Positions 1 to 32,771 of a stretch of DNA of 64,000 nt are shown here, in pieces. Where the stretch lies: IMG/VR virus record IMGVR_UViG_3300032770_000007, positions 1 through 64,000 of that record. One strand, written 5' to 3'. Both the position numbers and the translations under genes were made by a program. The number at the start of each line of letters is the position of its first letter. Position 1 is the first letter of the stretch. The notes beneath the pieces are model-generated. The model ran no database searches and was not told where the DNA came from. It saw only the letters and a list, made by a program, of their open reading frames with translations. The stretch is from a virus.

Positions 1-391
1 GGCCATTTAGAGGCTCACTAGTGAATGCTGTAAAGGCTGGTATTGTTAACAATGTGGTTGGATCTGTATTAAGCTTTGTGATTGCCACATTTACCAAAGC
101 CTTGGCTGCTGTCATTGATCTAGGAGTATATCCCATCAATTTGGCATGAGAAATAATATTTGGCAACAATACAGCCGTATCAATAAACATTTCATTAGCA
201 ACCATATTCAAATAGAATGCCAAATAATGTGTATTGTATGCTAATAGATTTACAAGCTGATTTAAAGCAGAACCAGTGAAATCATAATCTTGAAACTGAG
301 ATTGACTTTGAAGATAAGCAAGCAGATTAGTCTTAATGCTATCAAAATCTAGATCACTCACCACCAACTTACTATTATTTGATGCTGCCAT
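1..391 (-). CDS. gp6: Baseplate wedge subunit gp6 (N-terminal part, runs off window)
   Basis: Manual translation from ATG at 391: MAASNNSKLVVSDLDFDSIKTNL...QFQDYDFTGSALNQLVNLLAYNTHYLAFYLNMVANEMFIDTA, the typical gp6 N-terminus; follows gp25. Confidence 0.9.
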   Translation of the reverse strand, partial: MAASNNSKLVVSDLDFDSIKTNLLAYLQSQSQFQDYDFTGSALNQLVNLLAYNTHYLAFYLNMVANEMFIDTAVLLPNIISHAKLMGYTPRSMTAAKALVNVAITKLNTDPTTLLTIPAFTAFTSEPLNG

Positions 392-17428: not shown

Positions 17429-17669
17429 TTCCACCATCTTTTCTTTATTGGACGAGGAGTATATGTACCCAAATTCACTATACACATCATCCTACAAAAG
17501 GGACAACGAAGAGTCACGTAATCAGGCACAGTTCTAGTAGCATTATGAAACTTGCCTTCAGTTCCATGAAAAGTAAACTCAGTAGCACAACAACGGCATT
17601 TACCACGATATTCGTGTTCCCAGGGCAACTTACCTTGTGTGATGATTTTCAAAAGAACTCCATAATAAA

Positions 17670-17920
17670 AGGTGGCGTATGAGTAACAGAGAACACCACC
17701 AGAAACTCTGGATTCAGCTTTAGGCTGCTAGTGCCATTTCTGGCAAATCGAATGCATCATCGTCGTTTGCATTTAACGTTTTGTGCTGCTTAGGGCAGTC
17801 ACCTGTCCGGTAGCCATTGATTTATTCCGCGCCCAATCGAAACCTGGTCATCCCCATATGGTGGAGATGTGGGGAATCGAACCCCAGTCTTGAACGATTT
17901 TAGTCAACAGTTATACTACC
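17670..17920 (-). ncRNA. ssrA: Two-piece (circularly permuted) tmRNA; tag ANDDDAFDLPEMALAA
   Basis: Acceptor piece (TGGGG-TTCGATT-CCCCA, CATCTCC-ACCA ending 17859) precedes the coding piece starting GGGGATG at 17855; G3:U70; tag at 17770-17720; outer ends approximate. Confidence 0.9.
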
Positions 17921-17951
17921 ATCAGAACTATTTAGTTTACTACAAATATCC

Positions 17952-18194
17952 TTAAAAGTCAATCATTTCCATGGTGTTTATCTCTTCCTCTTGTTGTTCG
18001 TACTTTTCATAAAGTTCTGCAAGTTGATTGAATGCCGAAGCCACGCATTTGGCTTGTTGTTCTGCTAATATTTCTTCATTAGATACATAATATCCAACTC
18101 CAGGAGAATAACGAGCAGGATCATATGGTTTCAAATAACCTTTAGCATACTCTCGTAAAACTTCAGAAAACTTGGGTCTCATATTTCTTTTCAT
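17952..18194 (-). CDS. Hypothetical protein
   Basis: ORF in operon orientation. Confidence 0.45.
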   Translation of the reverse strand: MKRNMRPKFSEVLREYAKGYLKPYDPARYSPGVGYYVSNEEILAEQQAKCVASAFNQLAELYEKYEQQEEEINTMEMIDF

Positions 18195-21320: not shown

Positions 21321-21552
21321 TCAAATAGTCTCCAAATAATATTACCTATTCCCAATCCAAGCAATGAAGAAAAACAGAATAGACTTATAACAAATGGACC
21401 ATAATACCAAGCATTAGGATTAGGATTGATTACGTGATATAATCCAAACATTGACCAACACCAAACTATGCAACCAGAAAATACCGCAAAAAGAAACTGA
21501 AGAAAATCTTTGAAATGTTTTTGCATTTGATCCTCCAATATATTTAGGATAG

Positions 21553-21624
21553 CGCGCGAGGCGGGATTTGAACCCGCAACCGTGATGTTTAGAGCACCCC
21601 GCTCTGACGTTGAGCTACACGCGC
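21553..21624 (-). tRNA. Amber suppressor tRNA (anticodon CTA), CCA not encoded
   Basis: Cloverleaf: GCTC/GAGC D-stem, loop CT-CTA-AA, GCGGG-TTCAAAT-CCCGC T-arm. Confidence 0.85.
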
Positions 21625-29634: not shown

Positions 29635-31008
29635 TCAATGACTTGCGGAGGCTCTGGCCTTTATTTCCTCAAAAGTCTGATTGATGAGTAGTTCTCCATT
29701 CAGATAAACAGTTTTCAAGGCTGAATTACCTACACAACCAGCAGGCAAAGTGTAGTATTTTCCATTGTCTTCTATCAAAGTAAACCGTCCCTTTTTGCTC
29801 TTCTTGTAAGGATCCTCAACTGGATCTTTATAGACATCATGCCATTCACCATTTATTCTAATAGCTGAACATTTCATAGCAAACTTCTGCGTATCCCTAT
29901 TCAATTGCTGGAGTAATGCTCCTCCCATTCCAAAGGAAACATTTTCTGTAGAATAGTTATCCAATGCTAGTCTGCCCAAAATCTGTTCAATAGAATCTTT
30001 ATTGACTCCATCACCCTGAATAATCCTAACATTATTCAGAACCTTGAAACCCTTTGAATTGATAGTTGAACCAAACTTCTTATCTAACAAAGCAGCAACA
30101 CGACAAACTACATCAGGAGGATTGCCAGAATCTGGTCTAATGACCACAATGGCACCACTATCAACAACTTTTTGCTTTAGTTGTTCTCCCCAAATGAATT
30201 CTACAGCATTGTAAATATCATAACTATCAGATACCACAGCAACCAAAGCACCTGGTCTGGCATATTTCTCCAACATATTGGCATAGGCTTTGGCCTCATT
30301 ATCTCTACCCCAGGAAGTAATAGTAGAATGTTCTGCTGCTGGAATAGAGAAACCAGGCATTTCAGAACTTCTATAATACTCAGCAACAGCCAAACAGGCT
30401 GGAATATTATCTGTTCCCTGAAAGTTAATCAAATGAGCCATGCCGCCCAACTCACAACTTTCTAGACTTGCTACTCCTCTAGAGCCAAAATCATTCAGTT
30501 TGAAATCAACATTCTCATTATCATCAGTCCTTTTTAGATATTTGAGAATAATCTTCTTGATTTCAGCGCTGATTGTTGCCACTGTGGTAGGATACCAGAT
30601 AGCTCTTAAAATAGAAGTTTCTATATATGAGGTTAGCCAATAACAATTTGGATCTGTGTTCTCTACTGTTACCAAGACATTCTTTGTAGGAATAACTGTT
30701 CCTTCAAGAACAGCATCAATCTTGAGAGGCAATTTGCCTCCATGATGATCTATGATGTACAACCAACCTTCTTCATTGAAAGGAACTCCATGGCGCTTAC
30801 AAAAGTATTTGGCTTCACTAACATCATCTCTAGTAATCCTCTTGACCAAATATTCCTTCAAATATGCCTGTAATCCAAAGAAAACAGTATTCGCATATTC
30901 ACCACCACGAGACTCGATATAAGAATAAACTATTTCTGTCCCTGGTGGATATTGAAGATAATGGGAAGCCTTATAACTATCAACATTCAAAATGATATTA
31001 CGTTTCAT
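29635..31008 (-). CDS. nadV: Nicotinamide phosphoribosyltransferase
   Basis: DSYKASH..QYP, YIESRGG, WYPTTVAT, DFGSRG, SIPAAEHST, VSDSYD, RPDSG, IQGDG, FGMGGALLQ. Confidence 0.95.
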   Translation of the reverse strand: MKRNIILNVDSYKASHYLQYPPGTEIVYSYIESRGGEYANTVFFGLQAYLKEYLVKRITRDDVSEAKYFCKRHGVPFNEEGWLYIIDHHGGKLPLKIDAVLEGTVIPTKNVLVTVENTDPNCYWLTSYIETSILRAIWYPTTVATISAEIKKIILKYLKRTDDNENVDFKLNDFGSRGVASLESCELGGMAHLINFQGTDNIPACLAVAEYYRSSEMPGFSIPAAEHSTITSWGRDNEAKAYANMLEKYARPGALVAVVSDSYDIYNAVEFIWGEQLKQKVVDSGAIVVIRPDSGNPPDVVCRVAALLDKKFGSTINSKGFKVLNNVRIIQGDGVNKDSIEQILGRLALDNYSTENVSFGMGGALLQQLNRDTQKFAMKCSAIRINGEWHDVYKDPVEDPYKKSKKGRFTLIEDNGKYYTLPAGCVGNSALKTVYLNGELLINQTFEEIKARASASH

Positions 31009-31010
31009 GG

Positions 31011-32087
31011 CTAACTCCTATTGATCATATACATGCCAATAGAATGATGATCTTCAAATAACTGTTCACTCATATTATAAAAGTCTGAAATAGGTACCCA
31101 TTTGGCAACTTCAGCATCATCAGATCCCTTGATATAAGGTAAATGTCCTGGACTCATTAGAAGAAACAAACCAGCATGAGTGATAGTACGACCACGTAAT
31201 GATCTACCAGGAGCATCAAAAACATGGGTACTCTTGAGACAAGATTCTAAAACTTCTTCTGAAGCAAGTTGAGTTTCTTCAACCAACTCTCGAATCATTG
31301 AATGTTCTATTGTCTCATTCTGTCCTAAGAAACCACCAGGTAGAGCCCAAAGACCTTTGCCTGGGTGAGAACGTCTTTTGACTAAGAGAATATGCCCATC
31401 ACAAATAACAACAGCATCTGTTGTCACAAAAATGGGAGGATATTTCAATGAAGCGAACTGTGATTTATAGTCATTCAGAAACTTCCATTCCTCACATAAT
31501 GACTTATAGATATCTGAAAATCTGTCTTTCCAGTCATTGATATACTGATTGACCAAAGGAGGAACCAGGTCATCAATAGAAGCTTGGCTATAAAACAGCT
31601 GCTGTCTTACTTCTGTTCCAGAGGTAAAATGAGCCTGCTTGATTTCATGGAAGTCATACTGTGGGAACATATTCAGATAATATGAACTTTCATCTTTATA
31701 ATGACCCACAATCACCACTCTGGCTTCTTGCTTAGTTTTAATGAATGGCCAGAGCTCTTTATTTATGGCCTGTTGAACTTCTGCTACCCAGCGCTGATCA
31801 TTGTACAGATCATCCACAATAGGAGCATAATGAAATACCTTATCCAAAGGAGTTACTGCTCGTTCAATCATAGCAACTCTTTCATCATATGAAAAAGGAT
31901 TTTTAATATCTCGAGCAATCCAAGAAGAACCAACTAAAATCAAACGATGTTTGGCTATCTTGCCTGCTGCTGTAAATAGTTTCATATGTCCTAAATGGAC
32001 AGGCTGAAACCGACCAATCACCACAGCAAGGTCTGCTTGTGGCAACTCAATAGTCTTATCTGACCAAGATTTTGATTTAGATTTCAT
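31011..32087 (-). CDS. nadM: Bifunctional NMN adenylyltransferase / Nudix hydrolase
   Basis: GRFQPVHLGH, NPF...ER, Nudix box PGGF...E.......REL.EET. Confidence 0.93.
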   Translation of the reverse strand: MKSKSKSWSDKTIELPQADLAVVIGRFQPVHLGHMKLFTAAGKIAKHRLILVGSSWIARDIKNPFSYDERVAMIERAVTPLDKVFHYAPIVDDLYNDQRWVAEVQQAINKELWPFIKTKQEARVVIVGHYKDESSYYLNMFPQYDFHEIKQAHFTSGTEVRQQLFYSQASIDDLVPPLVNQYINDWKDRFSDIYKSLCEEWKFLNDYKSQFASLKYPPIFVTTDAVVICDGHILLVKRRSHPGKGLWALPGGFLGQNETIEHSMIRELVEETQLASEEVLESCLKSTHVFDAPGRSLRGRTITHAGLFLLMSPGHLPYIKGSDDAEVAKWVPISDFYNMSEQLFEDHHSIGMYMINRS

Positions 32088-32390: not shown

Positions 32391-32531
32391 TTATTGCCAC
32401 CCATTAATACACCACATAACAAAAATGACTAGAAAAAGTGCAATAGCAAAAGCCTGAATGAAACCCAACAAATTCATAAAAAAATGATTAGTGGGTGTTT
32501 CTTGTTCAGGTTGTTTACCAAAGTAAATCAT
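32391..32531 (-). CDS. 46-aa membrane peptide whose SD and ATG lie within the RNase P P1 helix
   Basis: GGGAG-N5-ATG; MIYFGKQPEQETPTNHFFMNLLGFIQAFAIALFLVIFVMWCINGWQ. Confidence 0.5.
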   Translation of the reverse strand: MIYFGKQPEQETPTNHFFMNLLGFIQAFAIALFLVIFVMWCINGWQ

Positions 32532-32771
32532 TATTGCTCCCATTACCCGCGATTCTGGTCTATGCTATCATTTGTCTCAGTTATTTCTAACTGGCTTTTC
32601 AGCTGCCCCAACCCGTAATCTCGCCGAGTAAGGTCATCAATCACTGTTTGGGTTGCTGCCTCGGATGTTGTGGTCACTGACTTTCATCTCCCACAGAGCA
32701 TTTACCGTTACTCTAAGCAGTCGCGAAGTTCCTCGATGAATATTCACCGCGATAGCTCGGAGCAATAATGA
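32528..32771 (-). ncRNA. rnpB: Minimal RNase P RNA (catalytic domain, reduced S-domain)
   Basis: 13-bp P1; GAGGAA-CTTCGCGA pairs with AGAA-TCGCGGGT (P4, bulged U); P2 GCTATC/GATAGC; P5 CTGC/GCAG-CAA; L15 GGT; P18 GAAA hairpin; J18/2 AGACAAAT. Confidence 0.85.

Follow-up and report, generated by a model that had tools for sequence, protein, structure and literature searches.

RNase P RNA is the ribozyme that trims the 5′ end of newly made transfer RNAs (tRNAs), and it is considered universal among cells. Reduced and virus-encoded forms have been reported. Archaeal type-T RNase P RNAs of Thermoproteaceae (Pyrobaculum) are reported to keep the catalytic domain and to have lost most of the specificity domain (S-domain) (PMC3579882). 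Bacterial RNase P RNA constructs made of the catalytic domain (C-domain) only are reported to cleave substrates, at lower efficiency (PMC5839562). Camelpox virus carries an RNase P-like RNA that is reported to show no pre-tRNA processing in vitro and for which a decoy role was proposed (PMC3001073). The RNA considered here is a 244-nt gene on the minus strand (32771–32528) of a 64,000-nucleotide stretch of DNA from a large uncultured phage, the window, which makes up the first 64 kb of the 125,827-base IMG/VR virus record IMGVR_UViG_3300032770_000007 (CheckV completeness 69%). It is probably a phage-encoded RNase P RNA subunit, derived from bacterial type A and stripped of its S-domain, and it is predicted to mature phage tRNAs with the host protein RnpA. 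A phage RNase P RNA was not found described in the open-licensed full texts of PubMed Central (PMC) or bioRxiv, a search that could miss subscription papers.

The catalytic-domain fold of this RNA (P1–P6, P15–P17 and P18) is complete, and more than 80 phage relatives maintain it through compensatory changes. Both ends of the gene are set by the 13-bp helix P1, and a model search finds only one copy in the 125,827-base record. A preliminary description of this DNA had called the RNA a minimal RNase P ribozyme and had drawn P1, P2, P3, GAGGAA, P4, P5 and P18; a sequence check located every helix that it named, all in place. It had not seen the P6 pseudoknot (RNA positions 59–64 with 141–146) or an extra hairpin (169–178). 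The minimum free energy of the 244-nt RNA is −77.9 kcal/mol, compared with −60.1 ± 4.5 kcal/mol in shuffled sequences (z −3.95; 0 of 200 shuffles were as stable). Window coordinates are 32772 − p for RNA position p, and the elements are as follows:

32759–32771 with 32528–32540, minus strand (RNA 1–13 with 232–244): helix P1, 13 bp, zero mismatches.
32751–32756 with 32564–32569, minus strand (RNA 16–21 with 203–208): helix P2, 6 bp.
32734–32749, minus strand (RNA 23–28 with 33–38): P3 hairpin, 6 bp, loop AUAU.
RNA 38–43, minus strand: GAGGAA, which includes the single-stranded J3/4 AGGA 3′ of P3.
32721–32733, minus strand (RNA 39–51): J3/4 AGGA and the 5′ strand of P4, ACU(U)CGCGA, with the bulged U46 at 32726.
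32545–32563, minus strand (RNA 209–219 and 220–227): J2/4 AUAGACCAGAA and the 3′ strand of P4, UCGCGGGU.
32715–32720 with 32656–32661, minus strand (RNA 52–55(57) with (111)113–116): helix P5, directly 3′ of P4.
32708–32713 with 32626–32631, minus strand (GAGUAA, RNA 59–64, with UUACUC, RNA 141–146, in the P17 loop): P6 pseudoknot.
32670–32694, minus strand (RNA 78–102): 25-nt stub in the place of the S-domain, GUGG/CCAC enclosing GAU-GAAA-GUC.
32607–32655, minus strand (RNA 117–165): J5/15 CAA, P15 (CCC/GGG), the P16/P17 hairpin and the 3′ strand of L15, GGGUU.
RNA 158–162, minus strand: L15 GGGUU, the 3′ side of the internal loop that P15 encloses and that carries the P16/17 hairpin.
32594–32603, minus strand (RNA 169–178): extra small hairpin GCU-GAAA-AGC, before P18.
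RNA 179–194, minus strand: P18 with a GAAA loop, spanning 32570–32593 together with J18/2.
RNA 195–202, minus strand: J18/2 AGACAAAU.

In P4, the pairs A43–U227, C44–G226 and U45–G225 are followed by the bulged U46 and then by five pairs from C47–G224 to A51–U220. The strands of P5 are separated by just 53–57 nt (the preliminary figure was about 60, with P10–P14 missing): the specificity domain, comprising P7–P14 with the T-loop-reading CR-II/CR-III, is absent, and its blocks are deleted when the Rfam model RF00011 is aligned to the window RNA.

Relatives of the RNA are numerous among viral sequences, and a covariance model built from it matches them at full length. The neighbouring gene, for a nicotinamide mononucleotide (NMN) adenylyltransferase/Nudix protein, led to another IMG/VR locus (L001), where a homologue in the upstream gap was first spotted by eye. 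A model made from the window RNA and its structure (R1) matched L006, L001 and L011 among 81 sources, at 95, 77 and 67 bits, and these three with the window RNA form the four-sequence model R2. MAFFT misaligned the 5′ half of the window RNA with L001, and model-based alignments were used instead. Simpler searches found little: blastn in its distant mode, with the window RNA and with the relative L123, gave no match among GenBank phages, and a first motif pattern gave zero matches. Two hits of a second motif pattern (L002 and L003) were rejected as chance matches in coding sequence, and that pattern otherwise returned only the record of L001. A pattern with the P4 of the window clade fixed found 9 viral stretches, and all 8 of the new ones match R2. 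When R2 was run on 50 whole related IMG/VR records, it matched at full length in 16, five of which were found pattern-free, and among the eight records at least 90% complete it matched in five.

Without any constraint on P4, a pattern made up of GAGGAA, GCAA....AACAG and CGGGTTG occurs in at least 119 viral stretches, and among the matches listed 76 of 78 new loci carry a full-length R2 match with E ≤ 1.5e-9. In 596 Gb of prokaryote genomes the same pattern found 109 stretches, with three genuine members among the 80 of the 109 that were listed. Given 3/80 prokaryote loci against 76/78 viral ones with the same pattern, the family is essentially viral. The three members from prokaryote genomes (L249, L257 and L261) sit on contigs of 2.3, 3.1 and 15 kb from metagenome-assembled genomes labelled Roizmanbacteria, Actinomycetes and Patescibacteria, and these contigs could be prophages or phage sequence binned in error. 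Members of the family are 187–336 nt long (median 230). One member lies in a cultured phage, Stenotrophomonas phage vB_SmaS-DLP_6 (DLP6; KU682439.2): it is 254 nt long, at 105771–106024 (2458–2711 of locus L240), and matches R2 at 139 bits (E 6e-39). No feature is annotated there; the member lies in the tRNA cluster of the phage, its end 1 nt upstream of tRNA-Arg(CCG). A term search of the main text of the DLP6 paper gave no mention of RNase P or of a ribozyme (PMC5349666).

These relatives made it possible to ask which parts of the fold have been kept through change. The covariation alignment holds 88 sequences, 80 of them distinct; among the distinct ones 91.6% of pair cells pair, compared with 58.8% in shuffled alignments and 33–41% in slid controls, and none of the five covariation measures was reached by any of 500 shuffles. 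A smaller alignment of 12 sequences gives 93.7% against 65.5% when shuffled. The counts for nested helices are biased towards the structure, since the alignment was fitted to the nested helices of the model. P4 is not part of the model structure, and most of the sequences were selected independently of it. Even so, 96.5% and 96.7% of the cells in its two segments are paired, with double changes at six of eight pairs; a single P4 pair is CG in 42 sequences, GC in 29 and AU in 3. Whole strands have been rewritten: CGCGA/UCGCG, CAGGA/UCCUG, CGGGA/UCCCG, CGCGG/CCGCG, CAGCC/GGCUG, CACCC/GGGUG and a near-canonical form all occur. Throughout these rewrites the bulged U is conserved in 79 of 80 sequences, which agrees with the preliminary view that U46 sits at the catalytic position within altered pairs.

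The nested helices behave in the same way. P1 has double changes at all 13 of its pairs (88.5% of cells paired), P2 compensatory changes at 6/6 (99.1%) and P3 double changes at 6/6 (95.1%), with a P3 loop that is very variable in length. In P5, double changes are seen at five of six pairs; the inner four are solid and the outer two are often unpaired. All three pairs of P15 covary (98.8% of cells paired), as do the first four pairs of P16 and, where the helix is present, all six of P18 (97.1%). Had P2, P4 and P5 failed to covary among phage homologues, the preliminary identification would have been undermined; with a covariance model built from such homologues, and 80 distinct sequences, all three do. 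The stub is also maintained, with 97.0% of cells paired in its outer stem and 99.5%, with double changes, in its inner 3-bp stem, and some relatives carry insertions of 50–110 nt in it. The extra small hairpin pairs in 100% of cells where it is present and is gapped in 42–45 of the 80 sequences. About half of the alignment, for example L112, L116 and L119–L122, lacks both this hairpin and P18, and there P15 runs straight to J18/2.

P6 provides a further line of evidence. In 73 of 80 sequences an RNA's own J5/7 can form at least five contiguous Watson–Crick pairs with its own P17 loop, compared with 13.9% of cross-pairings between sequences. The strand sequences are diverse across the family, and in the window RNA GAGUAA and the P17 hexaloop UUACUC are perfectly complementary. 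An alternative 6-bp hairpin, a P5.1-like candidate, can be drawn at RNA 58–77 in competition with P6; its support in the family is poor, with 74% of cells paired and gaps in 31–41 of the 80 sequences. The single-stranded elements J3/4, J5/15, L15 GGGUU, J18/2 and J2/4 are all conserved, J18/2 in the family form AGAnAAAUG and J2/4 around the consensus AUAGAACAGAA. The search pattern itself fixed GAGGAA, GCAA....AACAG and CGGGTTG, which leaves J18/2, J2/4, the P4 pairs and the bulged U as the only elements without ascertainment bias. The L15 GGU and J5/15 CAA of the preliminary description are thus present and conserved as parts of the pattern, and its J18/2 is so independently of it. The invariant CGGGUUG likewise belongs to the pattern, yet it is present in the five relatives found pattern-free.

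Comparison with Rfam places the RNA within the RNase P clan, at scores below the usual cut-offs. A scan at gathering thresholds reported nothing for the locus. When 501 bases were compared with 4227 families (cmscan), the bacterial class B model RF00011 matched 32538–32764 on the minus strand over model positions 1–365 (32.4 bits, E 2.9e-7, or arithmetically about 4e-5 when rescaled to the 64-kb window). Clan competition in cmscan reports the best clan model only. Seven of 15 excised relatives also matched a model of the RNase P clan, some of them RF00010 or RF00373; the strongest, L123, has a near-canonical P4 and reaches 86 bits with RF00010 (E 8e-26; gathering cut-off 100). Rfam missed the L001 homologue whether 13 kb or the whole record was searched. 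Taken together, architecture and descent support a reduced RNase P RNA in which the catalytic domain is whole and the S-domain lost, and the identity first proposed draws support from the clan matches, the helix covariation, the bulged U, the placement among tRNA arrays and the encoded CCA ends described next. We infer catalysis by the phage RNA from homology.

The company that the RNA keeps is that of tRNA genes. The window has 28 of them and a permuted transfer-messenger RNA (tmRNA) by ARAGORN. Among the 87 family loci, a same-strand tRNA is found no further than 1.5 kb away in 65, 100 nt in 47 and 10 nt in 41, and 10 have no tRNA; all tRNAs in these loci point the same way as the RNA, and in several loci the RNA exactly fills the gap between two tRNAs. 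The window RNA is less tightly placed: its nearest tRNAs (Thr and Leu), on the same strand, are 458 nt upstream and separated from it by small open reading frames (ORFs). CCA is encoded on 25 of the 27 minus-strand tRNA predictions of the window phage, which fits the retained GGU of L15. A scan for transcription signals gave three promoter-like sites (5.2 expected) and one terminator-like site (0.7 expected), and so no usable signal. At the other end of the RNA, a 50-aa ORF whose product has a hydrophobic tail (32391–32543, minus strand) begins within the P1 3′ strand and so overlaps the RNA 3′ end; it has a second in-frame ATG 4 nt before the RNA end and no Pfam match. Directly downstream are genes of nicotinamide adenine dinucleotide (NAD) salvage (29635–32087, minus strand), namely a NAMPT-like gene (PF04095, PF18127) and the NMN adenylyltransferase/Nudix gene (PF01467, PF00293). 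The RNA stands upstream of the latter gene in the window, L001, L006 and L011, and in just 3 of the 80 loci searched around such adenylyltransferase genes.

Further RNA genes of the window bear on its tRNA set. The permuted, two-piece tmRNA lies at 17629–17969 on the minus strand (RF04321, 142 bits; RF01850, 104 bits; ARAGORN tag ANDDDAFDLPEMALAA) and is likely to be a further RNase P substrate. A tRNA with a CUA anticodon, an amber suppressor that ARAGORN labels Pyl, lies at 21552–21624 (minus strand), far from the main array and with no encoded CCA. About half of the window phage tRNAs (33230–47501, minus strand) have non-canonical T-loops, with TGC, TTT, TTA or GGC for TTC: TTCRA is found in 13 of 25 CCA-ending tRNAs, or in 14 of 28 by the T-loop calls of ARAGORN. 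It was considered that loss of the elbow-reading module might go with remodelled tRNA elbows. As a general explanation this was rejected, for T-loops are canonical in 723 of 800 distinct tRNAs in family loci and in 34 of 37 in related phage loci of records without the RNA; the odd T-loops are specific to the window phage and are not family-wide.

Several results weigh against reading the RNA as a phage RNase P subunit. The window RNA scores 32.4 bits where the gathering cut-off for RF00011 is 97, which is why routine annotation overlooks it, and neither RF00011 nor RF00010 matched at E ≤ 1 when the whole record was searched. The preliminary description had foreseen that standard models might miss it; we take the whole-record misses to reflect the sensitivity limit of the first-look step of the search, yet they count against the finding all the same. 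Eight of the 15 excised relatives had no match to any RNase P model at E ≤ 1. In the reverse direction, R2 matched in none of five bacterial genomes (150 of 470–719 first-look candidates scored per genome), in all of which RF00010 recovered rnpB, and on the five excised rnpB sequences it gave local matches over P15–P18 in three, at 13.7, 10.0 and 9.9 bits (E 5e-4 to 6e-3). Within the fold, P18 is absent (gapped) in 42–51 of 80 sequences, around half of the family, and J2/4 of the window RNA and of L001 has a C where most relatives have an A. A gene for RnpA (PF00825) was found in none of 18 phage records (the window record, 16 RNA-bearing records, five of them at least 90% complete, and the complete DLP6 genome), so that the predicted formation of a holoenzyme would rest on a presumed cross-reaction with the host protein. 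Finally, the nearest viral precedent found, the camelpox RNase P-like RNA, is reported to be inactive in vitro (PMC3001073).

The same absence of rnpA from the 18 records, by which any protein partner must be the host's, could be turned to another account: the RNA might be a non-catalytic decoy or regulator, offering an RnpA-binding surface that soaks up or redirects host RnpA and so slows the maturation of host tRNAs or biases maturation towards phage transcripts. The S-domain needed for efficient reading of substrates is gone, and a decoy role has been proposed for the camelpox RNA (PMC3001073). We think it unlikely. Conservation is strongest at elements of the active site and of the substrate end, and not merely on the face that would bind protein: the bulged U (79/80), the geometry of P4 through its many rewrites, L15 GGU, the adenosines of J5/15 and P6 are all kept. 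Moreover, blocking RNase P would also hurt a phage with 28 tRNA genes. The close packing of the RNA against tRNAs (within 10 nt in 41 of 87 loci, with some inter-tRNA gaps filled exactly) would suit a different role, that of a non-enzymatic element acting in cis on the processing or folding of the tRNA-array transcript, as a structured spacer or a substrate mimic for host nucleases. This seems more doubtful still, as a spacer needs no P4 with a conserved bulged U, no P6 or L15 and no resemblance to RNase P models, and it fits poorly with the window, where the nearest tRNA is 458 nt off with ORFs between, or with the 10 loci that have no tRNA. That the RNA is a functionless remnant of a captured bacterial rnpB, or a chance look-alike, as the low Rfam score and the loss of half of the molecule might suggest, is highly improbable in view of a fold kept by compensatory changes in more than 80 distinct full-length relatives, near-confinement to viral contigs (among the matches listed, 76/78 viral against 3/80 prokaryote loci) and presence in five of the eight related records at least 90% complete.

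If the RNA is a phage RNase P subunit, a plausible course of events can be outlined. It would be transcribed from the minus strand together with the upstream tRNA genes. P4 with its bulged U and J3/4 would make up the metal-binding active site, lined by the adenosines of J5/15, J18/2 and J2/4, and P6 would lock P15–17 in position. L15 would dock the encoded 3′ CCA of phage pre-tRNAs and P4/J18/2 would take the acceptor stem; their 5′ leaders would then be cut off, and the permuted tmRNA may be treated likewise. Host RnpA would most likely be borrowed, because the 18 RNA-bearing phage records have no RnpA gene, and its hold on the 5′ leader could compensate for the lost elbow-reading module: to bind, substrates would then rely on their acceptor end and on host RnpA. 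The likely benefit would be a 28-gene tRNA set matured independently of host rnpB RNA during infection. The fullest version of this proposal, in which an active, widespread and elbow-blind phage ribozyme captures host RnpA to form a hybrid enzyme, frees the maturation of phage tRNAs and tmRNA from host rnpB and has its own ends released from the tRNA-array transcript by the pathway that processes the tRNAs, we regard as having about an even chance of being right.

Should the proposal hold, a catalytic RNA would join the translation components carried by big phages, and it would explain how tRNAs are processed in phages that have dozens of tRNA genes. It would also offer a natural answer to how little RNase P RNA suffices in vivo and show that a family has been overlooked by routine Rfam annotation at gathering thresholds. 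Activity of the RNA would make it the first known case of viruses carrying a ribozyme of the translation apparatus. The member in DLP6, a cultured Stenotrophomonas phage, opens these questions to experiment.

Set against known systems, the phage RNA resembles each in part. The camelpox/orthopoxvirus RNA is likewise virus-encoded and RNase P-like, but it belongs to a eukaryotic virus, whereas the phage family has a full catalytic core and lies among tRNA genes. Engineered C-domain-only RNAs are similar in outline architecture; they are laboratory truncations, whereas the phage RNAs form a natural, selected family with a conserved stub. The likeness to archaeal type T drawn in the preliminary description stands for the outcome, the same loss of the S-domain, and falls for descent: lineage and protein partners differ, and the phage RNAs carry the bacterial type-A hallmarks P6 and P15–L15–P16/17. 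Bacterial type B (RF00011) provides the top-scoring model at 32.4 bits, and the hairpin after P15 aligns with one in that model. Type B RNAs are defined as being without P6 and P16/17 and having P5.1/P15.1 instead. A type-B reading was rejected: P6 and P16/17 are present and covary, the P5.1-like hairpin is weak and relatives match RF00010 or RF00373. In our reading, the short extra hairpin artificially puts class B at the top for the window RNA.

It is to bacterial type A (rnpB, M1 RNA; RF00010) that the P6 pseudoknot, the P15–L15–P16/17 layout and the 86-bit match of L123 to RF00010 point as the ancestor. The differences are substantial. The phage RNA is without P10–P14 and the CR-II/CR-III module, having the 25-nt stub instead, and is roughly two-thirds the size (244 nt against a 367-position model); its P4 reads CGCGA/UCGCG where the model consensus is CCGGg/CCCGG; and it has the extra small hairpin before P18, no accompanying rnpA and a sub-gathering score. 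What the two share is P1–P5, P6, the P15 internal loop with GGU, P16/17, P18 with its GNRA loop, the J18/2 and J2/4 motifs, and a P4 built as 3 bp, a bulged U and 5 bp, with AGGA before it and CAGAA closing it.

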